Part shown: in pieces, positions 5,396-21,338 of the stretch
How the letters are laid out: each line of letters begins with the position of its first letter
How positions within the stretch are numbered: the stretch's first letter is position 1
From: a virus
Taxonomy: Duplodnaviria > Caudoviricetes
DNA: 64,000 nucleotides
IMG/VR virus record: IMGVR_UViG_3300031555_002663
Coordinates: 9,985-73,984 of that record
Reading direction: 5' to 3' (one strand)
The notes under the pieces: generated by a model
What the model was told of the DNA's origin: nothing
The model's input: the letters and a program-made list of their open reading frames with translations, nothing else
Databases searched by the model: none
Position numbers and translations under genes: made by a program

Positions 5396-5583
5396 ATATA
5401 TGTCCTCCTTTATCACTTTATATATATATTATACCATATTTTTTTCAAAATGTCAAGTTTTTCTTTTGACGCGAACATAGAGAGGGGAGAGATATTTTTT
5501 GCTCTTCTGGATTAGCTCTGGAGGAGCTCAAATATGCCGTTTGAGCAAAGGAGAGATCAGTTTTTGTGTGAATTAAATTAATA

Positions 5584-5782
5584 CCGATCGGCGCCCATCT
5601 CTTTTTTTATATAATAACATATTTTTTATTTTATGTCAAATCCGAGCGCATATGGCGAACCGATCGGCCCCCGCCCAGTGGAGGAGCTAAGATGAGGACC
5701 GATCGGCCTTTCGGGAAAAACTGGGCGCATATGTCGGAGGCGCTAGAAGTCTCGAAATTTTTGCATATGGATACCCGATCGG
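5584..5782. repeat. cluster of CCGATCGG palindromes and GCATATG motifs in non-coding DNA
   Basis: CCGATCGG at 5584, 5660, 5699, 5775 (also 4870); GCATATG at 5648, 5727, 5763. Confidence 0.85.
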
Positions 5783-5787
5783 AAAAT

Positions 5788-5814
5788 CGGGCCCTGCCTG
5801 CCGTCGAGGGCCCG
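5788..5814. repeat. GC hairpin family copy H1 (27 bp)
   Basis: CGGGCCC-13nt-GGGCCCG followed by CC and a minus-strand promoter. Confidence 0.75.
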
Positions 5815-5888
5815 CCGTATCCCTGTCTTAATTATACCACAAGTCGGACCATTTGTCAATAGGTATTTTCAACAAAAAAATCGCTCAA

Positions 5889-6074
5889 TTAAGAGCGATT
5901 TTCGGCAATCATTTTGTTCACTTCGTCAAGGGTCAAGTGCTGGTTACAACCCCAGCAAGCCATGTCCCCGCCCTCGCAGATGTCACAATCGGCACCAATG
6001 CAGGGCTTTGGAGTATTTACCGCATAATGCGGATTGCGGACACAGTCCGCGCAAACGCAACCTTTACATCCCAT
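5889..6074 (-). CDS. small Cys-rich protein
   Basis: 61 aa with CxxCxCxxC and CxxC; GGAGG SD. Confidence 0.7.
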   Translation of the reverse strand: MGCKGCVCADCVRNPHYAVNTPKPCIGADCDICEGGDMACWGCNQHLTLDEVNKMIAENRS

Positions 6075-6270
6075 AGACCTTTGCCTCCAATCTCGGCTTC
6101 CATTCTTCCCACAGGGTAATGAGTTCGGCTTCTTTGTCCCAATCATTAACCTCTGCCATTGCAAATTCTAATGCTCCGAACGCCTGAGCAAGGAAGTTCT
6201 GACCGCCTTCGGGATACTGCTCGATGCTCTGCTCTTTGCGTTCCCAGTATTTAATCAGTTTCTCTTTCAT
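6064..6270 (-). CDS. hypothetical protein
   Basis: 68 aa after promoter and AAGGTGATACCATG start. Confidence 0.75.
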   Translation of the reverse strand: MKEKLIKYWERKEQSIEQYPEGGQNFLAQAFGALEFAMAEVNDWDKEAELITLWEEWKPRLEAKVYGM

Positions 6271-6343
6271 GGTATCACCTTTCCTTTCTGATACTATTAT
6301 ACCGCAAAAGGGGCGATTTGTCAACCCCTTTTGCGAAAGTTTT

Positions 6344-6949
6344 TTAGAAAGGTAACTCGTGAGTTTCTGCAGCGTACTCGCAAGCAATGTTCATGTATTC
6401 CTCGGTAATAGAAGGAATGTCAAGGAAAGAACGGCTTGCCATGTAGTCTGCCATGTGTACACAGCGGTCAATGTTGGTGGAAGGTCGGTCTTCCTTGTTA
6501 GTAGACCACTGACCCATGTGAGCCTTCATTGCATCAAGCAGGTATTCGCTCGGTGCATAGTCGGTGTAATGGGTGCAGTACATCATGAAAGCATAGGCGG
6601 CATTTGCGGCGTGGTCTTTGTACTGGGTCTTGTCGTACTCGCCTAAACCATACTTTTGAGTGTCGTGCATGATGCAAGCGGCAATCACATAGTCCTTGTG
6701 TTCGGGCTTCATGTATGCGTAACTGCTCATTCGCAGAAGTTCCTCGGCGAACATGACCACGGCTTTAGTGTGGCGAACCAGACCGCCCATGCCCTGAGAA
6801 AATGCAGGGTGATATTTGCCACTACTGGAAGCACCGTCCGTCCAGAAGTAGTCGGGTACAGCTTCTTCCATGTAGCCTTTGACAGCCATGCGAAGGTCTT
6901 CATTTACGATGAGGTCGATTTCTCTTTCAAACAGCTTGATAGTTTTCAT
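6344..6949 (-). CDS. HD-domain phosphohydrolase
   Basis: ASSSGKYH...GGLVRHT...HDTQK...HMG...HMADY motifs. Confidence 0.85.
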   Translation of the reverse strand: MKTIKLFEREIDLIVNEDLRMAVKGYMEEAVPDYFWTDGASSSGKYHPAFSQGMGGLVRHTKAVVMFAEELLRMSSYAYMKPEHKDYVIAACIMHDTQKYGLGEYDKTQYKDHAANAAYAFMMYCTHYTDYAPSEYLLDAMKAHMGQWSTNKEDRPSTNIDRCVHMADYMASRSFLDIPSITEEYMNIACEYAAETHELPF

Positions 6950-7088
6950 TTTGCGGTGTCCTTTCTTTTAGAGCTCCTGCTCTCTTGATTACATACTTAT
7001 TATACCACCGTTTCGGGATTTTGTCAACACCTTTTGGAAAAATATTTTTCGGAAATTTTTTTTCTAAAACCCTTGACAAATCGAAATT

Positions 7089-7114
7089 CCGCCCGGACGC
7101 CTGTGTGCGGGCGG
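7089..7114. repeat. GC hairpin family copy H2 (26 bp)
   Basis: CCGCCCG-12nt-CGGGCGG; preceded by TTGACA without a clear -10. Confidence 0.75.
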
Positions 7115-7189
7115 CTCAAGCCAATAGGCAAAATGCACAAAAAAAGAGCCGACCCTAAAAAGGGTGGCTCTTGTGAGAGGGAGAGGGGC

Positions 7190-7561
7190 TTACTCCGCAA
7201 GGGAGAAGTAAGCCTTTCTCTTGTCCTCAGTGCGGACAACGATGCCATCGTCCTTCATCTGGCGAAGCAGAGCGGACACTCTCTGGTTGCTGAGTTCAGC
7301 ACACTCAGGGATTTCCTTCTGGATTTCGGTCACAGTGTAAAGGCGGTTGGGTTCCATACCCTCAGCGATAGCGGTCTTAATGCCCTCGTTGGCAGTCTGC
7401 TGAGCGGTAGGCTTTTTCTCAGCGGAGTTCTTGCGGTTGAGCAACTCAACCTCGTGGTCGATGAAGGCGATAACCTCATCGTAGTTGTCTGCGGTTGCAG
7501 GGTAAGCCGCACGGATAATTGCGAAGTAGTCCTTCTTAGTCATCTTCTTAGTATTAGCCAT
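7190..7561 (-). CDS. winged-helix DNA-binding protein, paralog A1
   Basis: C-terminal YTVTEIQ...ELSNQRVSALLRQMKDDGIVVRTEDKRKAYF; true start at 7561 after promoter and conserved TIR. Confidence 0.8.
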   Translation of the reverse strand: MANTKKMTKKDYFAIIRAAYPATADNYDEVIAFIDHEVELLNRKNSAEKKPTAQQTANEGIKTAIAEGMEPNRLYTVTEIQKEIPECAELSNQRVSALLRQMKDDGIVVRTEDKRKAYFSLAE

Positions 7562-7654
7562 AGTATCAAATCCTTTCTGGTTTTCTAAGGGTTTTCCTTC
7601 CCTTACTGTACTTACATTATACCATACTTCTAAGGGTTTGTCAAGGGGTTTCGC

Positions 7655-7880
7655 AAACTTTTTTTCTCGACTTACTGCGTCCATTAGACGTTTCACTTCA
7701 TCATGTCTATCACTCTTGCCGTTGGCGAAGTGCCACATTGTGGTGTTTCCCATTGGCTCAGATAGTCCGCCCGATAGTTACTGCGTGTAGTCGCCTTACT
7801 GCGGAATAAGTGGCTTACTTCCTCTACTAACCGAAGTGTGCACCCCTCGGCTTTCTTGGGCTACCGCCCCTTGACTATCT
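7655..7880 (-). ncRNA. candidate structured non-coding RNA 1
   Basis: Own promoter (TTGACA-17-TACAAT), no SD-led ORF, 8-bp closing helix AGAUAGUC/GACUAUCU, several internal hairpins, three CGCAGUAA motifs. Confidence 0.5.
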
Positions 7881-7929
7881 TTATTGTACCACAAACCTTT
7901 CGGTTTGTCAATACCTTTTTCAAAACTTT

Positions 7930-8108
7930 TTGAAAAAGTTTTGGCTTGTGTATCCTGCGTATCCACGACATTTTTTCAGCCTGCGTGGTCTGGTTCACAT
8001 TTGTATACCGCAAACAGGAACACCTTGCGGTCGGGTCTTGGGGAATCGGTCTTACTGACTCACACGGGTCACACCTTTTTGGCTTTGCCATTCCCTCGCC
8101 TTTTGTAT
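7930..8108 (-). ncRNA. candidate structured non-coding RNA 2
   Basis: Own consensus promoter; helices GGGAAU/AUUCCC, ACCGCAA/UUGCGGU, CCACG/CGUGG; the only ORF runs through the next promoter. Confidence 0.4.
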
Positions 8109-8290
8109 CTTTATTATACCACATCGGGAGCGGATTGTCAAGACCTTTTTCAAACTTTTTTCAAGTTTTTTCATCTTGCCTTTTGGCGGCTAGCCCCTCT
8201 CCCTTGGGACAATTATAGTATACTACATTGAATGCAGTTTGTCAATAGTTTTGGGAAAAATAATTTCTTTTTTTATTTTCGCAAAACCCC

Positions 8291-8354
8291 TTGACAAAAT
8301 GGCTGGCGGCATGGTATAATAAAAATTCGGCCCAGCGCGCTCGTCGCCGGGCCG
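8291..8354 (+). promoter_or_regulatory. + strand promoter with GC hairpin H3
   Basis: TTGACA(8291)-18-TATAAT then CGGCCC-15nt-GGGCCG (8328-8354), faced by a minus-strand promoter. Confidence 0.8.
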
Positions 8355-8468
8355 CCAATTATACCACATCAGCTTGCATTTGTCAATAGTTTTTTGAAAA
8401 AAAATAAATTTTGTGCAAAAAAGAGAAAAAATCTCCGATTTCTCGGAGATTTTTGTAAGATTTGCCGA

Positions 8469-8867
8469 TTATTTCGGCTTTCTTTTCTGCACAAGGGTCA
8501 ATTCATAGGCATTTTCACCAATTTTGAAAGCAATTTGGCGTTCTTTGTTGGTGATTTCGACATTTTCGCAAGCATTTTCGCTGTTTTCGGTCAAAAACTT
8601 GGCAAGTTCGGCAATGATAGAGCCTTTTGTGGGGTTTTCCTTTCGGCTACGCTGTCCACCTGTGTTGTCTAACTTGTAGACGGGAGGGGTTTTGCGTGTC
8701 CCTGCGTTCCTTGCTTTTTTGCTTGCTTTTTCCTGTTCGGGAGAGAGTTCAAAGAGTTTTGCACCTTTGTCAATCTGTTCATCACACTTGATTACATCGT
8801 CAATCTCTTCCTGTGTGAAGCCTAAACTACGCATGGCTTCAATCTGCGACTTTTCAACTTTTGCCAA
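8469..8867 (-). CDS. hypothetical protein, paralog B1
   Basis: TTG start after AGGGGA; clearly homologous to 10757..11143. Confidence 0.8.
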   Translation of the reverse strand: MAKVEKSQIEAMRSLGFTQEEIDDVIKCDEQIDKGAKLFELSPEQEKASKKARNAGTRKTPPVYKLDNTGGQRSRKENPTKGSIIAELAKFLTENSENACENVEITNKERQIAFKIGENAYELTLVQKRKPK

Positions 8868-8986
8868 AGCGTCATCCCCTTTCCTTGATTACATACTAAT
8901 TATACCACATCAAAGGCGATTTGTCAATAGGTTTTGCAAAAAAGTTTTTGGAGAGAGGGAGAAATTTCTCCCTCTCTCTGTTAGGC

Positions 8987-9346
8987 TCACGCCTTGGAGA
9001 AATACGCCTTACGCTTCTCCTCAGTACGAACCACCTTGCCGTCATCCTTGAGCTGACGCATCAGAGCAGAAACACGCTGATTGGACAACTCGGCACACTC
9101 GGCAACTTCTTTCTGAATTTCGGTTACGGTGTACAGACGGTTAGGCTCCATGGCTTCCAGAATGGCTTCCTTGATACCCTCGTTGGCAGTCTGCTGGGCA
9201 GTCGGCTTCTTTTCAGAGGCGTTCTTCTTCGCCAACAGTTCCAGTTCATGGTCGATGAACTCCACCAACATCTCATTACCTGCAACCTCGGGGATAACCT
9301 TGAGCATCTCGAACTTCTCACGCTTCGTAATCTTCTTCATAGTCAT
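8987..9346 (-). CDS. winged-helix DNA-binding protein, paralog A2
   Basis: Same KKPTAQQTANEGIK and LSNQRVSAL motifs as A1. Confidence 0.85.
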   Translation of the reverse strand: MTMKKITKREKFEMLKVIPEVAGNEMLVEFIDHELELLAKKNASEKKPTAQQTANEGIKEAILEAMEPNRLYTVTEIQKEVAECAELSNQRVSALMRQLKDDGKVVRTEEKRKAYFSKA

Positions 9347-9662
9347 AGTATCAACTTCCTTTCTTGCGTTGGTCGCAACCCTTATTGTATCTTTATTATA
9401 CCATACTCGGTTGAGTTTGTCAAGAGGTTTTTTGAAATTTCCTAAAGTTTTTTTCTTTCGGCTCTTGACTTTCTTTCCCTTTCTGTATCTTTATTATACC
9501 ATACTCGGTTAGGTTTGTCAATACCTTTTTGAAAACTTTTTGAAATTTTTTTCTGACCTCTTGGAGTTCCTCTCCCTTGGTACATTATTATTATACCACC
9601 ACTCCCCCACATTGTCAACACTTTTGGGAAAAATAAAAAAATAAAAATTTTCGCAAAAACTC

Positions 9663-9724
9663 TTGACAAAATTTGTGCCGCGTGGTATAATGGTGAATTC
9701 GGCGCCCATCGACCGTGGGCGCCG
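9663..9724 (+). promoter_or_regulatory. + strand promoter with GC hairpin H4
   Basis: TTGACA(9663)-17-TATAAT then CGGCGCCCA-7nt-TGGGCGCCG (9700-9724). Confidence 0.8.
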
Positions 9725-9765
9725 CGCCAAAGTCAATAGGCAAATTGCACAAAAAGCAAAATCCC

Positions 9766-10248
9766 TTAAAGGGATTTGCTTTCAGAAACGAAATACTTTC
9801 CGTTGTGCTTTTCGATGAAGTTTTTGATGATAGTGCTTTCAGCCTGAGTGTGAGAGTAGAAGTCAACTTCGTAATACTTTACAATGTCATTGTACTTGTA
9901 ACCAATGTCGTTGACCTTGCCCCACTCTTTCAACTCGGCAATCAAATTATCGTCGTGCTTGAAAGTGGTTTCAATCTTCCACAACTTGTCTTTGCGTGCC
10001 TTTTCCTCGCCCCACTTGACAAGGAACACGCCGACCACATTACACACAAAAGTGATAATACATTTCTGCCACATAGGGAAATCGGCAACCGTGTAAATCA
10101 TCATAATGTTATAAAATGCGAAATAGCCACCAGAAATCAGACTTGCCGCAATCTTACTGCCGTTAATGGTTACGATGGAGCGAATAGTGGAGAATACCAC
10201 ATTCACAATGGAAAGTCCGACAAACACCAACAAAAATTCGTAGTTCAT
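9766..10248 (-). CDS. membrane protein resembling UPF0316/DUF5698
   Basis: N-terminal TM region IVNVVFSTIRSIVTING.K.AASLI and a small soluble C-domain. Confidence 0.55.
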   Translation of the reverse strand: MNYEFLLVFVGLSIVNVVFSTIRSIVTINGSKIAASLISGGYFAFYNIMMIYTVADFPMWQKCIITFVCNVVGVFLVKWGEEKARKDKLWKIETTFKHDDNLIAELKEWGKVNDIGYKYNDIVKYYEVDFYSHTQAESTIIKNFIEKHNGKYFVSESKSL

Positions 10249-10347
10249 AGTATCAACTCTCTTTCTTACTTTCTATAATTATTATAACATAATTTTAATG
10301 ATTTGTCAATAGGTAAATGCTAAATTATTTGTTTTTTTCTCTTCCTT

Positions 10348-10506
10348 TTAAGCAAGGAAGAGAAATTTAGCCAAATAGGCAAAAGCCATGATTTCAATGC
10401 CGAACCACACCATTAAGCCACCACAATCACTGTCGATAGCCTTTACAAATTGTGCAGATAACTGAAATACAAAGATAATTAAAATAACAAGATTAAAACT
10501 ATTCAT
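10348..10506 (-). CDS. small membrane protein (52 aa)
   Basis: Read manually; promoter and AAAGGGGA SD upstream, TAA stop. Confidence 0.6.
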   Translation of the reverse strand: MNSFNLVILIIFVFQLSAQFVKAIDSDCGGLMVWFGIEIMAFAYLAKFLFLA

Positions 10507-10606
10507 AACTCATTTCCCCTTTCTGTAATTACATTATACACCCACTACTGGAAACTGTCAAGGGTTTTAGGAAAAAAAGTTTTTTAATTTATTTTACATT
10601 TTTCTC

Positions 10607-10669
10607 TTGACAAATTGCGTGGACTGGGGTATAATTAAAATTCCGGCCGCAACGTGCGTGAGCGGCCGG
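10607..10669 (+). promoter_or_regulatory. + strand promoter with GC hairpin H5
   Basis: TTGACA(10607)-17-TATAAT then CCGGCCGC-11nt-GCGGCCGG (10643-10669), faced by a minus-strand promoter. Confidence 0.8.
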
Positions 10670-10756
10670 CCAATTTTACCACATTCATTTGGATTTGTCA
10701 ATAGGCAAAATGCACAAAATTTTCATTTGGTAAAATTGCACAAAAAAAATGCCCCC

Positions 10757-11143
10757 TCAAGAGCGGGGGGCACTCAACACGATTTTGTACTTTTTGCCGT
10801 TCCAGTCGAACACAAATTCACGTTCAGGGTTCAGCACTTCAAGGCTTTTGCAGTCGGCTTGGTCGCTGATGGTCTTGGTCAACAGTTCAATCAAACCGCC
10901 CTTGACATCATCTGCCTTTTTATTGCGCTTTCCTTTGGAATTGTCCAGACTGTAAACAGTGGGTTTGCGCTCGGCTTGTCTTGCCTTCTTTGCGCCCTTT
11001 TCTAACTCTGGGGGCAACTCGAACAGCTTTTCGCCTCGGTCAATGCGCTTGTCATCTTCCAAAACCTGTTTGATTTCTTCCTCGGTCATTCCGAGATTTC
11101 GCATGGCTTGAATTTGCTTTTCATTACTTGCCATCTTCATCAC
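10757..11143 (-). CDS. hypothetical protein, paralog B2
   Basis: QIQAMRNLG.T.EEI...IDRGEKLFEL...KKARQA shared with B1. Confidence 0.8.
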   Translation of the reverse strand: MMKMASNEKQIQAMRNLGMTEEEIKQVLEDDKRIDRGEKLFELPPELEKGAKKARQAERKPTVYSLDNSKGKRNKKADDVKGGLIELLTKTISDQADCKSLEVLNPEREFVFDWNGKKYKIVLSAPRS

Positions 11144-11227
11144 CTGTCCTTTCTGTACTTATAGTATAGCACAAGGTGGAAGGTTTGTCAAGGGGTTTTT
11201 TGAAAAACCCCTTGACTTTTTCCTTCA

Positions 11228-11590
11228 TCAGATAGCCTTGAAGTAAGCCTTGCGCTTATCTTCAATTCTCTCAACCTTGCCGTCATCCTTCATCTGACGA
11301 AGCAGAGCAGATACACGCTGGTTAGACAGTTCTGCCATACCCTCGCAGTTCTTCTGAATGTCGGTAACGGTCATCATCTCGCCGCTTTCAGCAAGGAAGT
11401 CATAGATGGTGTCCTTCAGACCTTCATTTGCCACCTGCTGTGCAGTGGGCTTCTTCTCGCTTGCGTTCTTCTTGGCAAGCAGGTCGAGTTCGTGGTCGAT
11501 GAATTCGACAAGCATTTCGTTTGCGGAAACTTCGGGGATAGCCTTCAGCATTTCAAACTTTTCTCTCTTAGTCATCTTCTTGTTCATCAT
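11228..11590 (-). CDS. winged-helix DNA-binding protein, paralog A3
   Basis: Same family as A1 and A2. Confidence 0.85.
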   Translation of the reverse strand: MMNKKMTKREKFEMLKAIPEVSANEMLVEFIDHELDLLAKKNASEKKPTAQQVANEGLKDTIYDFLAESGEMMTVTDIQKNCEGMAELSNQRVSALLRQMKDDGKVERIEDKRKAYFKAI

Positions 11591-11828
11591 AGTATCATTC
11601 TCCTATCTCGTGTTAGGTCACGACCCATTTTTTTATCTGTAAGAGGCTTCCCTCTTTACATTCTTATTATACCATACTTGGTGAGGTTTGTCAAGGGGTT
11701 TTTCAAACTTTTTTAAAGTTTTTTTCTTGGAGGTTTTGTTTCTCTCTCCCTCTCACTGTAATCATTATACCACAGTGAGAGGGGTTTGTCAAGAGGTTTT
11801 TAAAAAGTTTTTTGAAAAACTTTTCAGA

Positions 11829-12488
11829 TTAGAAACGGCACTTTACATTGTTAAAGCGGTAGGGAGTGTCGCCCTTGTGTGCATTTCGAGTGAATTTGCG
11901 GTGAGTGTTCCAAACTGCACGCAGGATTTCAACTTCGATTTCGCAGTCAGCGAGAGCGGTGTGTTCTTCGACAAACTCAATCTCTCCGCTGATGAAACGA
12001 TAGCAAATTTCAGCGGACATCTGAATGTTGCCCTTTGCAGTTACAAAGCCATTTTCGGCACAGAATTTGTTATACTTTGCATACTGTCCGATAGTTTCAA
12101 AGAAAGCGAGCCAGGTGTCAACAAATTCCATTCCCTCAATGCACTCTGCAACGAAAGTCTTGTTGAAGTCAAAGCCAGAGTTGTGAGCGCAGGCGCAGGA
12201 AACATCGTTGGAAGTAAGCCAGTTGGAAAAGATTTCCTTTGCTTCATCTTCATTGTAGCAAATGACAGTTGCAGGGTTCTTGAGCAAGTCACGGTAATAA
12301 TCTTTCTTATACTTGCCATAGAAAGCACTATCGAGCATTAAGTTGCCGATAACTACAATGTCAATGCGGTCAATTTCGCCCCTCTTGGAGAGGGCAATGC
12401 CAGCGCAGTGGTAGGTAGGGCAATGAGCCTGAGCCGCACCGCCGAGGGTTTCAGTATCAATTACAGCAAAAATCTTTTCCTTAAACAT
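11829..12488 (-). CDS. DEDDh (DnaQ-like) 3'-5' exonuclease
   Basis: VIDTET (ExoI), AHNSGFD (ExoII), HTALAD (ExoIII); start after conserved TIR. Confidence 0.85.
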   Translation of the reverse strand: MFKEKIFAVIDTETLGGAAQAHCPTYHCAGIALSKRGEIDRIDIVVIGNLMLDSAFYGKYKKDYYRDLLKNPATVICYNEDEAKEIFSNWLTSNDVSCACAHNSGFDFNKTFVAECIEGMEFVDTWLAFFETIGQYAKYNKFCAENGFVTAKGNIQMSAEICYRFISGEIEFVEEHTALADCEIEVEILRAVWNTHRKFTRNAHKGDTPYRFNNVKCRF

Positions 12489-12725
12489 GGTATCAAATCC
12501 TTTCAAATTAGTGATTGAGGTTTGCCATCGCTCTCTCAACCTTACATACTTATTATACCACAGGTCGGTCGGTTTGTCAAGAGGTTTTTTGAAAGTTTTT
12601 TAATTTTTTTTTCTAACCTCTTGGAACTCCGTTCCCTTACCTTGTATACTTATTATACACCCAACGGCTGAAAATGTCAAGGGTTTTGGGAAAAATAATT
12701 ATTAAAAAAATTTTCGTAAAAAGTC

Positions 12726-12789
12726 TTGACAAATTGCGTGGGAAGTGGTATAATAGAAAATTCGGCGCGCCACAATCGTCCGCGCGCCG
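12726..12789 (+). promoter_or_regulatory. + strand promoter with GC hairpin H6
   Basis: TTGACA(12726)-17-TATAAT then CGGCGCGC-11nt-GCGCGCCG (12763-12789). Confidence 0.8.
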
Positions 12790-12936
12790 CCGAAATTTGT
12801 CAATACCTTTTTTGAAATTTGTGCAAAATGACGAAAATCCCAACCCGAAATGGATTGGGATTTTCATCAAGAAAGAGAGAGGGAAGGGGGTGGAAAATAG
12901 TGGGATGGGGCTGATTAGCTCAACCCCCGAGAAGCC

Positions 12937-13191
12937 TTACCAGCAGATGGTGTAATTGCCGAAACTGCTGTGAACAGTGAAACCGCTCTGCTCAAGGTAA
13001 GCCTTAAGGAAAGTCCATTCAATGTTCCTTGTCTTTGTAAAAGTGGCTTCTCTCCTGCCGTGCTTTGCGGCATCTTCAAGGGCAGGTCCGATGACTTCTT
13101 CTGCATACGCCATTGCCCTATTCATCTTTGCAGTTTCACGCTCACCCTGTATCTGTGTAGCGACTGCTTCTAACTCTTTTGCATTTTTCAT
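12937..13191 (-). CDS. hypothetical protein
   Basis: 84 aa, own promoter and conserved TIR. Confidence 0.8.
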   Translation of the reverse strand: MKNAKELEAVATQIQGERETAKMNRAMAYAEEVIGPALEDAAKHGRREATFTKTRNIEWTFLKAYLEQSGFTVHSSFGNYTICW

Positions 13192-13246
13192 GGTATCAAC
13201 TCCTTGTCCTTTTGTACCTTAATTATACCACATGAGGAGGGGTTTG

Positions 13247-13552
13247 TCAACCCCTTTCCTCAAATTCTTTGAGAATTTTTGCGGCTTCGGCGATTGCCTG
13301 CTTGAAACGACCTGACAGCTCATGCTCTCCGCAACAGTCCATTTCATCAGCAATGTGTTCTTTTACTTTGTTCAGCTCATCGCCAAACTGAGTGGCGTAC
13401 TTGGCAAAGCAGACGCAGGGCATGGAGCCGATTTTGTCAACATAGATTTCCAGTGCTTCGCCCTCGCGGATGCCACACTGTCTGCGGATTTCCTTGGGGA
13501 TTACAACTCTGCCGAGGTCATCAACACGGCGAATAATTCCAGTAGCTTTCAT
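13247..13552 (-). CDS. AbrB/SpoVT-family transcription regulator
   Basis: MKATGIIRRVDDLGRVVIPKEIRRQCGIREGEALEIYVD is the canonical swapped-hairpin domain. Confidence 0.9.
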   Translation of the reverse strand: MKATGIIRRVDDLGRVVIPKEIRRQCGIREGEALEIYVDKIGSMPCVCFAKYATQFGDELNKVKEHIADEMDCCGEHELSGRFKQAIAEAAKILKEFEERG

Positions 13553-13629
13553 AGTATCAATTCCTTTCTTGTTTGTGTCTTAATTATACCACATTTCGGG
13601 AGGTTTGTCAAGGGGTTTTTTGGAAGTTC

Positions 13630-14076
13630 TCAAAGATTTTTGAGAACTTCCATGATGTTCTGCACATCGTAGGCTCTGCCCGTCCAGTTGTCACGGTTCT
13701 TTGCTTCATCGTCAAAGAGAATGTCAAGAGGATTTTCGCAGAAGTTCTGCTTCGGTGTACCGTAAGGGACGATTGTAATTCTATCCCAATTCACAGAGGG
13801 AAGATGTTCGGCAAGCCAACGCATTTTTGCTTCGGTGACTGCTTCGTTATAGGCTTCGCTTCCACTCTTGGAAAGCCAAGAGATAACAGCGATTTCATAA
13901 CCTGCTCTCTGGAGTGCGTTTAACTTACGAGCCAGAGTGCAAAGGCGAAGCAGAGGATTTGCGTTTGCGTAGGGGAATACATCTTCATTGATAAGGTATT
14001 CGAGCCAGTTTTCAACGCCGTAAAGGTCAGCAATCGTGCCGTCCATGTCAAAGTTAATAGTAATGTTCATCTTCAT
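13630..14076 (-). CDS. HAD-superfamily hydrolase, 5'(3')-deoxyribonucleotidase-like
   Basis: FDMDGTIAD motif I, W(L) cap segment, ILFDD motif IV. Confidence 0.8.
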   Translation of the reverse strand: MKMNITINFDMDGTIADLYGVENWLEYLINEDVFPYANANPLLRLCTLARKLNALQRAGYEIAVISWLSKSGSEAYNEAVTEAKMRWLAEHLPSVNWDRITIVPYGTPKQNFCENPLDILFDDEAKNRDNWTGRAYDVQNIMEVLKNL

Positions 14077-14146
14077 AGTATCAATTCCTTTCCTTACTTT
14101 CTATAATTATTATACCACCGATTGACCGATTTGTCAAGGGGTTTTC

Positions 14147-14578
14147 TTAAATTTCTTTCTGAAATTTTACCCAAGTTTCGTAGTAGTCTTTTTCTACGCT
14201 CTTGGAATAGCCTTCTTTCTGGTAGCCTTCTTCAATGAACTTGTGCATTTTGTAGTCAAATTTCATTGCCCATTTACGCAGATGCAGAGGGGCTTTTCTC
14301 CATAGGTTACTGTAACCCCAATCCATGCAGTAGTAAAAAGCATTATCTTCTTCGACCCATTCGAGAATGTAGGGCAGAACATGGTCAAGCACCTTGCAAG
14401 CGGTTTCTTCGCTCCACTCTCTACGATTGTAAGCCCATTCAGATGCCTTGTCGTAAGCAACCACAAAGGGAATGAGGGGTAGTGCCCAGATGTAATAGCT
14501 GTACTTTTTGCCGTGGATTACATACCACTTTCTTTTGGATTTATTCTCTCTTGTCTTTGCGTATTCAAAATCTTTCAT
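14147..14578 (-). CDS. hypothetical protein
   Basis: 143 aa, own promoter and GGGAG SD. Confidence 0.75.
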   Translation of the reverse strand: MKDFEYAKTRENKSKRKWYVIHGKKYSYYIWALPLIPFVVAYDKASEWAYNRREWSEETACKVLDHVLPYILEWVEEDNAFYYCMDWGYSNLWRKAPLHLRKWAMKFDYKMHKFIEEGYQKEGYSKSVEKDYYETWVKFQKEI

Positions 14579-14683
14579 GTTTGTTTCTCCCTTCCTTTAC
14601 TGTATCTATAGTATACCATACCCGCCCGCATTTGTCAATAGTTTTAGGAAAAATAATTATTTTATTTTTTTTTGATTTTTCTC

Positions 14684-14745
14684 TTGACAAAATGTGCAGG
14701 CTGTGGTATAATGGAAATAACGCGCGCCTGGGTCGTGGGCGCGCG
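14684..14745 (+). promoter_or_regulatory. + strand promoter with GC hairpin H7
   Basis: TTGACA(14684)-17-TATAAT then CGCGCGCC-9nt-GGCGCGCG (14721-14745). Confidence 0.8.
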
Positions 14746-14797
14746 GCCGAAAAAGAAAAACCGCCCCCATTTCGGGAGCGGTTTCTGCAAGGGGAAA

Positions 14798-15046
14798 TCA
14801 AATTCCCCAAGCAGTCATCATCATCCAACCCAGAATCATCATCGTCCATTCCTCGGTGATGTAATCCTCTTCGGCGTTGGCGGTTACATAGACCTCACCA
14901 GTGTAGCCATCGACCACATCAACGGGAGCGCCGTTGGTTGCGTGTTCCATCAGAGCACAGATGGCAACATCAGCGGAGTTGGTGGCAACAGTAATGTCGC
15001 AGTCCTCGTAGTGAGCAGTTACATAGTAAGCAGAAGTGTTCATCAT
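14798..15046 (-). CDS. hypothetical protein
   Basis: 82 aa from the conserved TIR; the ORF-track extension crosses its promoter. Confidence 0.75.
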   Translation of the reverse strand: MMNTSAYYVTAHYEDCDITVATNSADVAICALMEHATNGAPVDVVDGYTGEVYVTANAEEDYITEEWTMMILGWMMMTAWGI

Positions 15047-15125
15047 AGTATCAAATCCTTTCCTTTTTTGTATCTTAATTATAGCACAGAGCAGATGATT
15101 TGTCAAGGGGTTTGGAGAAGATTTT

Positions 15126-15344
15126 TCAATCTTCTCCGACACAACTTCTACAAAAGATGTTACCCTCTTCGTCAATCATTGCAGAAGGAAGAATCATCGA
15201 GCTGTCACAGCACTGGCATCTGACAATCATCGGCAGGTCATTGGCGAAGAACCATTCGCCGTTAATCTGTCCCTTCGGCATTTCTACGCCGATGTTTTTC
15301 TTAATCCACTTTTCAGCGGTGAGAATCTTTTTAGTGTTAGCCAT
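15126..15344 (-). CDS. small Zn-ribbon protein
   Basis: CQCC...CRSC; N-terminus MANTKK identical to paralog A1. Confidence 0.75.
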   Translation of the reverse strand: MANTKKILTAEKWIKKNIGVEMPKGQINGEWFFANDLPMIVRCQCCDSSMILPSAMIDEEGNIFCRSCVGED

Positions 15345-15434
15345 GGTATCAATTCCTTTCCTGTTTTCTGATACTATTATACCATACTCTGAGCAGTTTG
15401 TCAATAGGTTTTTGAAAAGTTTTTAATTGGCTCT

Positions 15435-15851
15435 TTAGAAAGAGCCAATCTGTGTGATGCCTTGGTCTTTCAACCATTCGCAGAACTGGTCGGCAGGAAG
15501 TAAGTCAACAAGGTCTTTCATGGTGTACCATCTGGTCACTTCCATCTTTTCCCATTTCACACGAATAGGCTCAAAAGTCTTTTCAGTGAGTTCAGTGTTG
15601 TTTCTTTCAATGTCGCCCCAGTGAATTTCAATGGTAGGACGACCACGAAACAGAGTGAAACCAGTTTCGGCATTTCTAATCATGTTGCGTTCAATCGCTT
15701 CACATGCTTCGGCAAATGTGCCGTAGTAGTATTCTGTACTGTTGGAACTACCTTCCATTTCAATGTAGCGAATGTGGCTCCAGATGGAAGTGTCACAGAA
15801 GTCGCTGTTTCCGATTGCTACGGAACATCTAAGGTCAATAAGTTTTTTCAT
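15435..15851 (-). CDS. hypothetical protein
   Basis: 138 aa, promoter and TIR. Confidence 0.8.
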   Translation of the reverse strand: MKKLIDLRCSVAIGNSDFCDTSIWSHIRYIEMEGSSNSTEYYYGTFAEACEAIERNMIRNAETGFTLFRGRPTIEIHWGDIERNNTELTEKTFEPIRVKWEKMEVTRWYTMKDLVDLLPADQFCEWLKDQGITQIGSF

Positions 15852-15911
15852 AGTATCAATTCCTTTCTCTCTTGCTTTCTGTAATTATTATACCACACAT
15901 TAGGGGCTTTG

Positions 15912-16238
15912 TCAACCCCTAATTGTGAAAAGTTCGGGATGTCTTTTGCAATTTTTAGTGATGCGTTTTTCCATGCGAGGGGACATTTGCCCTTTACCTG
16001 CCATTCTGTACAGTTTGTATCCCTGAGATACTGTTGCCATGAATGCAGTAATTACAATGTCACGATACAGATTCTTTACTACGATAATTCCGCTACTGGT
16101 CAGAATGTATCTTTTTTCTTCTTCAACTACTGCAACTTCGAGAACTGCATTGGTGAAGCCGAGGACTTCTTCGAGAGCCTGCAGGCGGTTTGCTCTTTCT
16201 ACTCCTGCGTGGAAGGTGGTGTTGTGGATGGTAGTCAT
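15912..16238 (-). CDS. hypothetical protein
   Basis: 108 aa from AAGGACTTGATACAATG. Confidence 0.75.
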   Translation of the reverse strand: MTTIHNTTFHAGVERANRLQALEEVLGFTNAVLEVAVVEEEKRYILTSSGIIVVKNLYRDIVITAFMATVSQGYKLYRMAGKGQMSPRMEKRITKNCKRHPELFTIRG

Positions 16239-16308
16239 TGTATCAAGTCCTTTCTTGTTTCCCTTTGTTGTATTTATTATACCACGGAGAAGGGGTTTTG
16301 TCAACCCC

Positions 16309-16662
16309 TTATTTGAAAAATTCTCCGTAATTTTTTCTGTTTTTTCCACACTTGAAAGCGCACAGACCGAGTTCGCACAGCTGATTGTAGAAGGGGTCTT
16401 CGTAAGGAACTTTGAACCATTCAGTTTTCTTGCCGTCAATGGTAGCAACTACCATTTCATAACCCATTTTGACGATTTCCTTGTGGAACAGACCTTCCAC
16501 AAAATGCTTGCTCTTTTCCATGGTCTTTACATAGCTAATGCAACGGACTTCGGGGTTGTGTGTAGTGTAAGCATTGAAGCGGTTTGCAAGGTCGCTTGCA
16601 AAACCAGCCTTGAACAGGGCGTAGTTCTTCTTTTCATCCATCATCAGATACACAGAATTCAT
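16309..16662 (-). CDS. T5orf172/MUG113-like GIY-YIG family protein
   Basis: VYLM...KAGFASDLANRF...VEGLFH...TEWF. Confidence 0.7.
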   Translation of the reverse strand: MNSVYLMMDEKKNYALFKAGFASDLANRFNAYTTHNPEVRCISYVKTMEKSKHFVEGLFHKEIVKMGYEMVVATIDGKKTEWFKVPYEDPFYNQLCELGLCAFKCGKNRKNYGEFFK

Positions 16663-16761
16663 TTTAATTTACCTCTTTCTTTCTCTTGTTGTTTTCCCTT
16701 GTTGTTGTATTTATTATAGCATGGAAGGGGCTGTTTGTCAACCCCTTTTTTCAATTTTGTT

Positions 16762-16935
16762 TTAATTATTTTCAGCAAATTCAGTAAGCATTACAAATGC
16801 ATTGTATTCACTGTGTACAGGATTGGGCATGGTGTTGTCTGCGACGATGTCTACCCAACTGGCTACAAGCCACAACATGAACAACACATTTACTAAACAC
16901 CACAATCTACCTAACCACTTCATCATTGTCATCAT
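16762..16935 (-). CDS. small membrane protein (57 aa)
   Basis: Read manually; promoter and GGGAG SD, hydrophobic N-half. Confidence 0.6.
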   Translation of the reverse strand: MMTMMKWLGRLWCLVNVLFMLWLVASWVDIVADNTMPNPVHSEYNAFVMLTEFAENN

Positions 16936-17110
16936 CTCCCTTTCTTTAATACTATTATAGCATTACGGGAGATTGTTGTCAATAGTTTTTTTACAACTTT
17001 TTTTAGTTTTTTTACTGTAGCACTTTAGCGCGCTAAAGCTAGGGCTCCAGCGGCCCTGCTCGGCGCCAACGGCACACAAAGAAAAAGAGAGGGCTTTCAC
17101 CCTCTCTTGA

Positions 17111-17440
17111 TTAAGGCATGATGTGCTTAACACAGATGACTTCTTGGCAATCATCACACACCCAATAGTATTTATCTCCACCATTCTTTACATGGTCAGC
17201 ACTCTTGAACTCCCACGCCTGTCCGCACTCATGGCATACGCCATTGTTCCACGCCTTCTCGTCGTGTGCGCTCTCTGCCCACATCACACCTGTCATGAGG
17301 AGACCGAAGGCCACAGCCACAAGCACACCTACCACACCACGCACCCACGGCTTGCTGTTGTCCATGTTGCTGGTTACCATGAGGGAGAAGAAGCTCCCCA
17401 CGATGCTACATACTACTACGCTAAAGATGAATACTCCCAT
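17111..17440 (-). CDS. membrane protein with C-terminal Zn ribbon
   Basis: Two TM segments, CHEC and CDDC. Confidence 0.75.
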   Translation of the reverse strand: MGVFIFSVVVCSIVGSFFSLMVTSNMDNSKPWVRGVVGVLVAVAFGLLMTGVMWAESAHDEKAWNNGVCHECGQAWEFKSADHVKNGGDKYYWVCDDCQEVICVKHIMP

Positions 17441-17555
17441 TGTTCCTACCTCTTTCTTTGTGTTGTTCTTTCCTTTACTGTACCTTTATTATACCACACT
17501 ACTGGTTATTTGTCAAGGGGTTTACACAAAGTTTTTTGCACAAATTAAGAGAGGC

Positions 17556-17942
17556 TCAATGAGCCTCTCTCCATACCTTTACAATGATGTCGTCCTCTGT
17601 ATTGTTAGGTGTGTGGTTGTCTGCTATCCACAAGAGCAAGAAGTCATCAGCCTGCACAGGCTCTTCGATGTACCACACATCGCCTGTCTCATCCTCTACC
17701 AGCTGACGCTCGTACTGCCATGCCCCCACCATGCGGATGGTGCCATCGCTGAAGTCCCCGCACCAGTTATCCTCGATGATAGAGGTATCAAAACCCCCGC
17801 TCTGCTCTACCACAGGAGCCTCTACGGCAGATGCCTGCACAGGAGTTATTGCCTGCATGAACAGAACTACAGCGAACAGAAACGCTACAGCACCAAGTGC
17901 CATGCCAATGCTCAAGGTTACATCTCTCAAAGTCTTCTTCAT
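17556..17942 (-). CDS. secreted or membrane-anchored acidic protein
   Basis: Signal-peptide-like N-terminus (VQASA); first gene of the leftward cassette array. Confidence 0.75.
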   Translation of the reverse strand: MKKTLRDVTLSIGMALGAVAFLFAVVLFMQAITPVQASAVEAPVVEQSGGFDTSIIEDNWCGDFSDGTIRMVGAWQYERQLVEDETGDVWYIEEPVQADDFLLLWIADNHTPNNTEDDIIVKVWREAH

Positions 17943-18099
17943 AGTTATCATTTCCTTTCCTCTTTGTTGATACTATTATACCATGCTACTGGCTTGTTGT
18001 CAATAGGTTTGTGCAAATTATTTTGGGAATTTTTTAAGTTTGTCAGATTGCACAAAAATTTGTCGAGAAGTTTGTGCAGACTGCCAATTGCGTAAAACT

Positions 18100-18126
18100 C
18101 GGCTCGCCACGTCCGGCGCCGAGCCG
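18100..18126. repeat. GC hairpin family copy H8 (27 bp)
   Basis: CGGCTCG-13nt-CGAGCCG preceded by AAAACT. Confidence 0.7.
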
Positions 18127-18390
18127 AGCAATTGCTAGGGGTGGTAGATTGTTCTTACTGTCGCTGCTTCTGGAAAGCTGGCAATACTTTTTGTATAGGG
18201 ATGTGGGGGGTGTATTTCAGGGAAAAAAATTTTTTTTCTTGTTGATTTGTTTTGCTCTGGGCACAACTATCCTGTAGACCATTTTCGATTTCGGATTACG
18301 GAGTTCAGAATAGACGAAGGACCCACCCCCATCCCTATTTCCGGGATTTTTAGGGAGTGGGTCCCATACTACCAGGTTTGTGTATATTAA

Positions 18391-18639
18391 TTAGATAAAA
18401 TCATTTTCATCGGCTAGCACGAACTTATCATGCCAACCCTTTTCGCCACACTTAGGGCATTTCAGCATTCTCTTGCCAGGCATGTGCATACTACACGCCC
18501 ATTCTTTTACTGTGGGTTTGTGAATAGTTCTACACTTCCCACATTGATAAACTGCAGTCTTAAAATCATATACAGTTGCCGCAACGGTCGCTACAACCAT
18601 CACGCCAGTCAAAATTCCACCAATTACTTTCTTGTTCAT
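18391..18639 (-). CDS. membrane-anchored Zn-ribbon protein
   Basis: TM helix plus CGKC and CPKC. Confidence 0.75.
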   Translation of the reverse strand: MNKKVIGGILTGVMVVATVAATVYDFKTAVYQCGKCRTIHKPTVKEWACSMHMPGKRMLKCPKCGEKGWHDKFVLADENDFI

Positions 18640-18827
18640 AAACTACCACCTTTCTTGCCGCCAAAGCCAAACTTAAACCAATCCTTCAATTCTTCAACTT
18701 TAGCCTTTCCTGTATAAATTAAAAATGTCTTTGTGCCGATTCCTGCAATATAAATGAAAGCGTATGCCGTTGCCCATGCTCCGACCGCTTTGCCAATTGC
18801 CATGAGACCTTCGCCTAAAATTTCCAT
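18636..18827 (-). CDS. small membrane protein
   Basis: 63 aa, coupled overlaps with both neighbours. Confidence 0.65.
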   Translation of the reverse strand: MEILGEGLMAIGKAVGAWATAYAFIYIAGIGTKTFLIYTGKAKVEELKDWFKFGFGGKKGGSL

Positions 18828-19162
18828 TACTCTTTACCTCCAAAAAGTGCACCAAGAATATCGCCAAGTTCTTTTTCAACATTGATATTGTTAAATGGCT
18901 TTACATAATAGTGCCAAACGAAGCCGAGTCCATCTTGCACTGTGCCGATGTAGTCTAAATACTTAAGAGTCTCTGGCAGCTCCCAACCGGTGCCAAGGCA
19001 AATAATTTGCAATTCAATTTCATCCACATCATCGTCAACTTCATACCAGATGCAAGGACCTGCGCCCGGCTGAAATTGTGCCGTTAAAATTCTTCTAATC
19101 TTACCCTTAATATTTGTAATTGCTCCATCAGTTCCCAATTCATCTTTATAAATTCTAATCAT
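18827..19162 (-). CDS. hypothetical protein
   Basis: 111 aa, GGAGG SD. Confidence 0.7.
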   Translation of the reverse strand: MIRIYKDELGTDGAITNIKGKIRRILTAQFQPGAGPCIWYEVDDDVDEIELQIICLGTGWELPETLKYLDYIGTVQDGLGFVWHYYVKPFNNINVEKELGDILGALFGGKE

Positions 19163-19186
19163 GCCGTTTCCCGGTCCTCCGATCTA

Positions 19187-19642
19187 TTAATCTGGCTTAA
19201 ATCTGCCCATGCCGCAATCGACAAATCTATGACAAGTTAGCATACATTGTGCATCTGCCGAATGACATGGTACAAATTCATCAAGTTCTCTCATGTAACT
19301 AATATCATAGTTACATTCATAATCATGTGGTTTTGTATGAAATAAGAAACTGTCATAACCGATTTCATAAAAGCATCTACTTGCAATATATTCATCCCGC
19401 ATTTTAATCCATGCGTCTTTTTCTGCGCGAGAAGGCTCTTCGATGTCTTCTTTAATTTTGCCAGTTTCATCATCAATTTCAATATCAACGCTCATACTAC
19501 CATCTTTATTTCGATGGCATCGTTTTGAAAAAAGTTTTCTGCTTACTTCAAAAGGGTCTCTAATATTATGTTCTCTGGCAAATTTATTAAAATCTGCCGA
19601 AAAATTCATAGCTTTAAAGCCATCTTCTGATACAATTACCAT
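19187..19642 (-). CDS. hypothetical protein
   Basis: 151 aa, GGAG SD. Confidence 0.7.
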   Translation of the reverse strand: MVIVSEDGFKAMNFSADFNKFAREHNIRDPFEVSRKLFSKRCHRNKDGSMSVDIEIDDETGKIKEDIEEPSRAEKDAWIKMRDEYIASRCFYEIGYDSFLFHTKPHDYECNYDISYMRELDEFVPCHSADAQCMLTCHRFVDCGMGRFKPD

Positions 19643-19842
19643 TTTGTAATTACTCCTTCAACATGGCCGACTTTAATAAACCCTGCAGGTTCATCTAAAT
19701 CAACAAAATACCCATCATTTATTTTAATGAATCGTTTATCTTGAACAATCCATAAGTCGCCGAAACAAGGATTCAAATAAATATCTCCATCAACGGCATC
19801 TTCATATTCATTATCCAATTCTTCAAATTCTTTATTTGCCAT
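19636..19842 (-). CDS. hypothetical protein
   Basis: Start MANKEF after AAGGA, overlapping the folD stop. Confidence 0.65.
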   Translation of the reverse strand: MANKEFEELDNEYEDAVDGDIYLNPCFGDLWIVQDKRFIKINDGYFVDLDEPAGFIKVGHVEGVITKW

Positions 19843-20662
19843 TTTCCTTACGCTCCTTAAAACCAGTACGTCTGAATTGCGCGGCAAGCAAAGTATTTTC
19901 CAATAGGGCGACTCTTGTGAGGAGCCCAACCCCGCCAGGAACTGGCGTTACATCTCGGTTTTCAGTGTTAATACAGTCACCTACAAGTTTGCCGTTTTCA
20001 TCAAAATTAATACCAACATCAACCACTGGTACATGAATTGCATAACAATTTAAAAATGCTGGTTTGCCGACTGCCGTAATAATGAAATCTGCCGTTTCAA
20101 TAAACTGCCATTTGTCCTTACTCTTTGAATGACACAGAGTAACTGTAGCGTCCCTGTTAGTTAACATTTGCGCCAATGGCTTACCAACAATATCACTTCT
20201 GCCAAAAATCGTGACATTTTTACCTGTAAAATCATAGCCGCAACCATTTACTACATAGTCAACAATTCCAGCAGGAGTGCATGGATTGAACCAGCTCATA
20301 GGATGAAAACCATCTACATCTTTTTCTGGCGCAATGGTTAGCTTAATAGCATCTACATCAATATGCTCTGGTAGAGGCATCTGAACAATCATACCGTCCA
20401 CATAAGGAAGTAAGTCTTTGATTTCTGTTACGAGTTCATTTTCTGAAATTGTTTCTTCATAATAATACCACTCGAAAGAAATTCCGACTTCTTCACAATC
20501 TTTCTTTTTATTGCGAATATAACGAGTTGAAGCTTCGTTATTGCCGACTTGGATAACTGCCAAAGTTGGCTTCTTGGCATCTACAAAGTCTTGCTCAATA
20601 TCTTCTTTAATCTGCGCTTTCTTATTTGCACAAAATTCTTTAATGTTTTGAGTTAAAATCAT
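19832..20662 (-). CDS. folD: bifunctional methylene-THF dehydrogenase/cyclohydrolase
   Basis: LAVIQVG...ASTRYIRNKKKDCEEVGI, IVQMPLP, PEKDVDGFHP, PCTPAG, GRSDIVGKP, VTLCHS, DVGIN, TPVPGGVG. Confidence 0.95.
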   Translation of the reverse strand: MILTQNIKEFCANKKAQIKEDIEQDFVDAKKPTLAVIQVGNNEASTRYIRNKKKDCEEVGISFEWYYYEETISENELVTEIKDLLPYVDGMIVQMPLPEHIDVDAIKLTIAPEKDVDGFHPMSWFNPCTPAGIVDYVVNGCGYDFTGKNVTIFGRSDIVGKPLAQMLTNRDATVTLCHSKSKDKWQFIETADFIITAVGKPAFLNCYAIHVPVVDVGINFDENGKLVGDCINTENRDVTPVPGGVGLLTRVALLENTLLAAQFRRTGFKERKENGK

Positions 20663-20879
20663 CGTCATCATCCCATCCTTCTGGTAAGATACAATCCAAT
20701 AGAGTAGTAAGAACCTGATTAATGCCGAAAATCGGTCCGCCGATCGCGAAAATCAGAAAGAATGCTACTTTATCGGAAGGTTCTAAATTTTGAACATATG
20801 GAATATAATCTATCATTGCGATTGTTGATAGAGTAAACCATAAAATTACTGCTATTACATAAGAGATCGAAAATCCCAT
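20640..20879 (-). CDS. small membrane protein
   Basis: Two hydrophobic segments, acidic tail. Confidence 0.6.
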   Translation of the reverse strand: MGFSISYVIAVILWFTLSTIAMIDYIPYVQNLEPSDKVAFFLIFAIGGPIFGINQVLTTLLDCILPEGWDDDDDFNSKH

Positions 20880-21247
20880 TGATAACTCCCATCCTTCATT
20901 TTACAAACTATTTGATTTGGAAGGAGTGCAAATCGGAATCCGTCTTCATCATTTTTATCTTCATGTGTTATTTCAGTTTGATATTCTGTAAGTCCAATAA
21001 TTTTCTTTTCGTCGTATAATGAAAAATCATAGACAGAACCAGTAAAATCTGCACCTTCTTTTACTGAGAGTAAAAGAGAACATGGATATTTCTCTTCAAT
21101 ATTTTTCTCGAACCAAAGTTTCATGCTTTCTTCTGGATGTGATTTAATGTAGGCATCCATAAGTTTGCCGATTGCTATCCACAATGAAGCGATAATAAAT
21201 ATTGAGCATAGTAGCAACCCGCCTAAAATACAAATTGCAATTACCAT
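20855..21247 (-). CDS. membrane-anchored hypothetical protein
   Basis: N-terminal TM helix; promoter at about 21276-21305. Confidence 0.7.
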   Translation of the reverse strand: MVIAICILGGLLLCSIFIIASLWIAIGKLMDAYIKSHPEESMKLWFEKNIEEKYPCSLLLSVKEGADFTGSVYDFSLYDEKKIIGLTEYQTEITHEDKNDEDGFRFALLPNQIVCKMKDGSYQWDFRSLM

Positions 21248-21275
21248 ATAAAACCCCTTTACCTTTTTATATAAT

Positions 21276-21338
21276 TATTATAACATTTTTTTTTGAATTT
21301 GTCAAAAATTTGACTTTGCCCAAAATTTTTGTTATAAT
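21276..21338. promoter_or_regulatory. back-to-back sigmaA-type promoters at the strand switch
   Basis: Minus strand TTGACA-17-TATAAT; plus strand TTGACT(21310)-17-TATAAT(21333). Confidence 0.75.

Follow-up and report, generated by a model that had tools for sequence, protein, structure and literature searches.

A non-coding unit between two promoters of an uncultured phage: a candidate shuffled leader module with a small conserved core

The locus and its promoter array

The window, that is the whole 64,000-nt stretch of DNA analysed here, belongs to an IMG/VR virus record of 73,984 nt with an estimated completeness of 38%. Related records span 139-402 kb, and three of them, at 139-177 kb, are estimated to be 67-92% complete. 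Between 5.4 and 21.3 kb the genes of the window lie on the minus strand and constitute the early arm. The GC content of these minus-strand early genes is 0.40-0.47, compared to 0.28-0.40 for the plus-strand late genes, and the same contrast appears by region (40-47% in the early arm at 5400-21300, 28-40% in the late arm at 22000-64000). The early arm is rich in promoters: 33 minus-strand matches to TTGACA-N16-18-TAYAMT were found between 5456 and 21305, about one per 480 nt. In the usual unit, an upstream A/T-rich tract is followed by a promoter, a leader of about 25 nt, the SD sequence GAAAGGA-TTGA, an ATG and a small gene. The cassette leaders typically open with GUCAAG(A/G)GGG or a similar sequence, and leaders of this kind begin many units in the relatives.

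Other arrangements occur along the array. At 9395-9618, 11666-11792 and 12552-12680, two to three consensus promoters are stacked with a spacing of about 98-100 bp, separated only by a leader hairpin and an A/T tract. At 8291-8386, two consensus promoters oppose each other (plus strand 8291-8320, minus strand 8386-8358) and flank a single GC hairpin at 8328-8354, which both would transcribe from starts about 25 nt apart. Further plus-strand promoters like the one at 8291-8320 are found at 9663, 10607, 12726 and 14684. Behind the promoters 5859 and 5639 there are ORF-less units (window 5583-5710) in which the palindrome CCGATCGG occurs four times and CATATGCGC twice.

The unit examined here, 7652-7880 on the minus strand, lies between two near-consensus sigma-70-type promoters, P7911 and P7644. 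The original prediction had placed an RNA of about 225 nt here, with its own promoter, and the promoter is indeed present: P7911 (7911-7883, minus strand; TTGACA, 17-nt spacer, TGn, TACAAT) has 11 of the 12 consensus positions. Its expected +1 is near 7876, A/T tracts precede it at 7915-7943, and its counterpart in the related contigs L282-L287 has TATAAT. Judging by promoter consensus only, the unit would be expressed early. The transcript would begin with the generic leader of the promoter cassettes, in which GUCAAG is followed by the hairpin GGGC-GGUA-GCCC (7858-7869). At its 3' end, the unit consists of the A-rich UP-like tract of P7644 (7644-7616, minus strand; TTGACA-17-TATAAT, 12 of 12 positions), the proximal promoter of a winged-helix gene. 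No intrinsic terminator was found on the minus strand between 7880 and P7644; terminator-like sites are present in other units of the array, such as the one at 8328-8354. A transcript from P7911 should therefore read into the winged-helix gene, and the discrete transcript originally proposed loses its 3' end.

The winged-helix gene (MarR/PadR-like, 7190-7561, minus strand, SD GAAAGGA) encodes 123 amino acids, and a terminator-like hairpin follows it at 7152-7165. Its product gives weak Pfam matches to the MarR, PadR and Mnd1 HTH families, has 3063 homologues at E <= 1e-20, and belongs to a family without a PHROG match. Among the more than 3,000 metagenome relatives of this family, one comes from a MAG labelled Treponema sp. 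An exact look-up of the 123-aa protein returned no match, because the public gene call is a 182-aa form. In this call (P0001) and in a second one (P0053, 178 aa), the ORF is lengthened by 59 aa across P7644 into the candidate unit (window 7190-7738); the extension is probably a gene-calling artefact. In P0053, moreover, the N-terminal part of the true protein is mosaic, suggesting that recombination has occurred within the gene. The window contains three winged-helix paralogues (7190-7561, 8987-9346 and 11228-11590), two of which precede a paralogous gene of 128-132 aa (8469-8867 and 10757-11143).

The unit itself does not look like coding DNA. As originally stated, it lacks an SD-led ORF: no SD start opens a frame of at least 25 aa inside it. 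A codon-usage log-odds model trained on 24 early genes gave -10 to -33 per 171 nt for the three transcribed frames, compared to 24.7 +/- 8.7 (5th percentile 8.3) for real in-frame gene windows. Codon usage is thus non-coding in all three frames. Each frame of 7652-7880 contains 2-8 stops, and no translated similarity was found in any frame. Reading TAG as sense opens frame 1, but the first start codon then appears only in the last 7 codons. Known RNA classes gave no hit either: Rfam 15 returned no match across the whole window at gathering thresholds and none inside 7652-7880 at E <= 5, no tRNA or tmRNA was found for the unit, and Tandem Repeats Finder returned only the A/T tracts of the UP-like elements.

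The slot in related phages

Close relatives were traced via homologues of the winged-helix protein, followed by exact look-ups of their contigs, and the slot between the two promoters was found in four states. In the first, the window unit is retained: L294 and L295 are identical to the window over 1,681 nt, and L299-L301 are 99.1% identical, with 2 of 229 positions different. In the second (L282-L287 and L304-L306), the flanks are 81-97% identical, and a 114-nt ORF-less unit of unrelated sequence takes the place of the body. Similarity to the window is lost 2 nt past the P7911 -10 and returns about 8 nt ahead of the P7644 -35; with respect to L282-L287 the homology covers 8870-7881 and 7651-7190, and the intervening body is exchanged. 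In the third state (L288, L292 and L293) the unit is absent, and a P7911-type promoter directly drives the winged-helix gene. In the fourth (L302 and L303), the same slot holds homologous units, which we refer to as family B. Family-B units also occur in other slots, namely in L292 upstream of the neighbouring RNA described below and in L290 upstream of another winged-helix paralogue, which brings the homologues to four loci in related contigs.

The 114-nt replacement unit (L282:2296-2410, and the same slot in L283-L287 and L304-L306) shares only GGGTGCACAC with the window unit. It has a perfect 8-bp closing helix, UUGCUUGG/CCAAGCAA, and keeps GGGUGCACAC; its fold z-scores are 0.4-0.7.

Family B is best read as a module that has been moved, swapped and deleted among related phages by recombination at the repeated promoters. 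The breakpoints lie at promoters and the unit is replaced or absent in close relatives, a pattern as described for the promoter-cassette shuffling of PeSLs, mobile regulatory cassettes known from T4-type phages (Arbiol et al., 2010, PMC2839356; Comeau et al., 2014, PMC4122927). Common to both are the many copies of strong sigma-70-like early promoters in a plastic region of small genes, here represented by the 33 matches of the array, and the location of indel and replacement breakpoints between close relatives at the repeated cassettes. There are also differences. PeSLs couple a promoter with a terminator stem-loop, whereas the unit at 7652-7880 lacks a terminator; what is swapped here contains no ORF; and the phage is an unrelated, uncultured one of roughly 170-190 kb from herbivore-gut metagenomes. 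Non-coding regions driven by early promoters, such as lncRNA2, have been described in the Kayvirus vB_SauM-515A1 (PMC7698491). Like the present unit, lncRNA2 has no ORF and follows a typical early promoter in a virulent phage. However, the Kayvirus regions are about 525-570 nt long, located beside tRNA genes and supported by RNA-seq, and they show no sequence relation to our unit, whose transcription is predicted.

For the unit itself, blastn found no match in the GenBank phage collection. When blastn and tblastn were applied to 19 related IMG/VR loci and to four whole records of relatives, the promoters matched but the body did not. Motif-pair and motif-triple scans of IMG/VR and JGI metagenomes gave chance matches only, and two pattern scans for family-B cores in IMG/VR gave either nothing or chance matches within coding DNA. 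The model R2, run over 37 loci and five whole records, found no members past the six already used. Paralogy with other ORF-less units was considered and rejected, with local alignment z-scores of -1.3 to +1.25.

A small conserved core

Alignment of the family-B members (A6) reveals a limited set of shared elements: the generic leader, the second hairpin, the purine-rich 14-mer AGUAGAGGAAGUAA (7815-7828), GUAAG-CGA, CAGUAA, and a 3' CGC(A/G)GUAA that stands before the A tract of the next promoter. The 14-mer is identical across all members, in lineages whose genes differ by 11-16%. The units of L290 and L292 are 92% identical, compared to 74-84% for the neighbouring genes, a difference that could result from recent lateral exchange instead of selection. 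An insertion of about 92 nt (7683-7774) is confined to the window/L299 lineage: it is gapped in L302, L290, L292 and L303, has no counterpart in other family-B members, and gave no match elsewhere by blastn or tblastn.

The complementary segments listed in the original prediction are all present in the sequence, and their fates in the homologues differ. The pair CCGAGG/CUUCGG is kept. The GACUAUCU arm and the hairpins CUU.GCC/GGCAAG and UAGAC/GUCUA, three of the five proposed helix elements, fall within the lineage-specific insertion. The helix said to close the 5' domain, 8 bp between the 5' end and a segment about 120 nt further on, depends on where the transcript starts: a z-score of -2.09 was obtained only with a start at 7880, 3 nt past the -10, which is implausible, and folding of the 5' domain from the expected +1 (7876) gave -0.45. 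For the whole unit, the folding energy is -58.8 kcal/mol, compared to -57.6 +/- 4.7 kcal/mol for dinucleotide shuffles (z = -0.25), and all family-B units fold like their shuffles (z near 0). The RNAalifold consensus of the family-B 5' part is -3.05 kcal/mol and contains no shared structure besides hairpin 2. With no excess of folding energy, most helices unconserved and a start-dependent closing helix, the five-helix architecture is not supported.

Hairpin 2 (7831-7850) is the sole proposed helix that is conserved in the homologues, and the only one for which covariation was found. In the window it reads CCGAGG/GGUGCACA/CUUCGG, and its stems in the family are CCGAGG/CUUCGG, UCACUC/GAGUGG and CCAAGG/CCUUG-G. 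In alignment A7, 100% of the cells are paired and both partners are changed in four of the six pairs; this was equalled by 3 of 500 shuffles, and slid controls reached 0-1, in a comparison that is based on four independent sequence types only. The non-Watson-Crick cells are both G-U on the transcribed strand. The window, L299 and L302 share the 8-nt loop G-GUGCAC-A; L290, L292 and L303 have G-CGGCCG-A instead. The form of the loop, a purine followed by a 6-nt palindrome and A, is therefore preserved despite the change of sequence; by chance, a single loop of 8 random nucleotides would contain a 6-nt palindrome with a probability of about 0.046. Kissing-loop hairpins of the retroviral DIS type have a short stem and a loop of purine(s), a 6-nt GC-rich palindrome and A, with GUGCAC and a GC-only variant among the palindromes seen. 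Hairpin 2 resembles them in its 6-nt self-complementary core flanked by purines and kept through sequence change. It differs in that its loop has 8 nt rather than 9, its biological setting is another one, and it is also a plain DNA palindrome. The likeness to a dimerisation element is best treated as a lead.

The repeated word of the unit also changes its identity when homologues are considered. Three copies of the 8-mer TTACTGCG had been reported, and they are found at 7672, 7778 and 7796 (the last given earlier as 7797). On the minus strand they read CGCAGUAA. Copy 1 (7796-7803) corresponds to (G/A)GUAAG-CGA in relatives; copy 2 (7778-7785) is CUCAGUAA in L299, through one of the two changes noted above, and in L302; copy 3 (7672-7679) lies directly ahead of the A-rich UP-like tract of P7644, at a site conserved as CGC(A/G)GUAA throughout family B. 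The window contains four copies of TTACTGCG compared to 1.03 expected. The triple itself carries less weight, because simulation at matched local composition yields, per window, an average of 1.55 triples of an 8-mer within 140 nt, and because the middle copy is altered to CTCAGTAA in the 99%-identical L299. What the aligned sequences indicate as the family feature is the shorter word RGUAA, not the 8-mer CGCAGUAA: it is present in 4-5 copies per family-B unit, compared to about one in shuffles (P <= 0.01 each), at aligned places and outside the conserved loops.

Immediately upstream lies another ORF-less unit (7942-8107, minus strand) with its own promoter, P8141 (8113-8141). Five distinct members were found, including ones from more distant phages (G001, G003 and G004), and the gene downstream of the RNA varies from phage to phage. 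The 3'-terminal 100 nt of the RNA are nearly invariant. Two hairpins and a loop-to-3' pseudoknot make up the architecture, the pseudoknot being formed by the loop of the hairpin CCGCAA/UUGCGG with ...CGCAGGAUAC. Each of the 21 pairs is formed in every sequence, and covariation supports the pseudoknot, with both partners changed in six pairs of the structure (equalled by 0 of 500 shuffles; slid controls reached 0-1). It has no Rfam match. By these comparisons, it is a stronger structured-RNA candidate than 7652-7880. The two units resemble each other in having their own consensus promoter, no ORF, no terminator and another promoter downstream, and ACGCAG words are common to both. Nevertheless, no homology is detectable (z = -0.04), and membership of the candidate in the neighbour family was rejected, since the covariance model R1 has no match in 7652-7880 at E <= 10. 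A further ORF-less unit, L290:180-300, contains GAGGGGTTCAAATCCCATGGG, which resembles a tRNA T-arm; ARAGORN calls no tRNA there.

Readings of the unit

The reading that we favour, and to which we would give about an even chance, is that the unit is a shuffled non-coding leader module, extending from a distal promoter of the winged-helix gene, with a core that acts in cis. P7911 would start a transcript near 7876, opening with the generic cassette leader. The transcript would then carry the core (the hairpin at 7831-7850, the 14-mer at 7815-7828 and the RGUAA words), pass through the approximately 92 nt of lineage-specific sequence, meet no terminator and cross P7644 into the winged-helix gene at 7561-7190. 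The unit would thereby be the distal-promoter leader of the winged-helix mRNA, and the core would act on the stability or processing of this downstream message, not as a small RNA of its own. A trans-acting RNA, too, would be compatible with the conserved core, the enrichment of RGUAA and the conservation above flanking genes.

Such a free early small RNA, released by processing or by factor-dependent termination, with RGUAA words that bind a host or phage factor and possibly forming a homodimer via the palindromic hairpin 2 loop, seems to us unlikely. It would give a role to the 4-5 aligned RGUAA words in every member, to a loop that kept its purine, palindrome and A while changing from GUGCAC to CGGCCG, and to a unit conserved above its flanking genes; the covarying neighbour also illustrates that a unit lacking an ORF can be a genuine RNA at this locus. 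By computation, the homodimer duplex exceeds two separate hairpins in stability by 13-16 kcal/mol. However, this figure is the cofold energy of the extended duplex only and is a trivial consequence of palindromy. Further arguments against a free RNA are the lack of a terminator or defined 3' end and of excess folding energy, the fact that the full 8-mer is not conserved, the loss or substitution of the unit in many close relatives, and the lack of a known protein linked to RGUAA. Direct support for the protein-sponge or antitoxin-mimic role of the original prediction was not found, with neither a tandem array nor a toxin-like neighbour at the locus. Sponge RNAs of the CsrB/RsmZ type present GGA in hairpin loops, usually in many copies, and end with a terminator. 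Our unit shares with them several copies of one short word in a short non-coding transcript, but its word, RGUAA, is not displayed in loops, and both a terminator and an Rfam match are missing. ToxI-type (type III) antitoxins are arrays of tandem repeats, each about 34-36 nt long, located next to the gene of an endoribonuclease toxin. They too are non-coding, repeat-bearing RNAs, and ones that a phage could mimic; in our case there is no tandem array, and the neighbour is a winged-helix gene rather than a toxin. It is tempting to speculate further that family-B RNAs are released from the leader and form kissing-loop homodimers with 8-10 RGUAA words per dimer, titrating a host RNA-binding protein or nuclease as infection begins, and that with the pseudoknotted neighbour they make up an ncRNA cluster travelling with winged-helix genes. 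We regard this extended scenario as quite improbable.

It is likewise doubtful that the unit is functionless filler, trapped between promoter cassettes by illegitimate or promoter-mediated recombination and carried neutrally, with its repeats arising as local microduplications. The unit is dispensable, being absent or replaced in relatives with flanks of 81-97% identity. About 92 nt of it are restricted to one lineage, there is no thermodynamic signal, and the 8-mer triple is unremarkable at the scale of the window. The lack of homologues in four related whole phage records, in IMG/VR and in the metagenome pattern scans also agrees with filler. What neutral filler does not account for are the compensatory double changes in four of six hairpin pairs with complete pairing, the 14-mer that remains invariant while genes diverge by 11-16%, and the 92% identity of the L290 and L292 units next to genes at 74-84%.

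There is a slight chance that the conserved feature is a DNA-level element, in which the near-palindrome of 20 bp at 7831-7850, alone or together with the RGTAA words, would serve as a protein-binding site or cruciform regulating P7911. Its position, about +27 to +46 relative to P7911 and hence just 3' of the promoter, would suit a roadblock operator; all three variants are symmetric across the centre of the site; and family-B units are invariably upstream of a winged-helix gene. On the other hand, the arms change fully while the recognition helix of the adjacent winged-helix protein (SNQR[V/I]SAL-RQ) is nearly invariant, and no similar palindrome or RGTAA cluster exists upstream of the two other winged-helix paralogues; an operator for winged-helix proteins is disfavoured on both counts. 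The loop core is bordered by an asymmetric, conserved G/A pair, and the non-Watson-Crick cells are G-U on the transcribed strand. Taken together with the invariant recognition helix and the bare paralogue upstream regions, this favours a hairpin that would act at the RNA level rather than in DNA.

Finally, a small protein-coding gene or decayed gene remnant is hardly credible: the public call P0001 (182 aa) does carry the winged-helix ORF upstream to 7738, and L290, L292 and L302 do contain short UUG-started frames following a GAGGAAG word, but the extension crosses P7644 without an SD, the UUG frames vary in length and sequence and have no equivalent in the window, and the codon scores, the stops in every frame and the lack of translated similarity all argue against coding.

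Our findings leave the five-helix RNA unsupported, but the locus does hold a small conserved non-coding core within a mobile module. If this core or the pseudoknotted neighbour acts in trans, they would represent new phage RNA families at the onset of infection in uncultured large phages of the herbivore gut. The phage group itself is a clear natural case in which promoters mediate the shuffling of non-coding cargo, beyond the T4-like phages for which shuffling of this kind was described.
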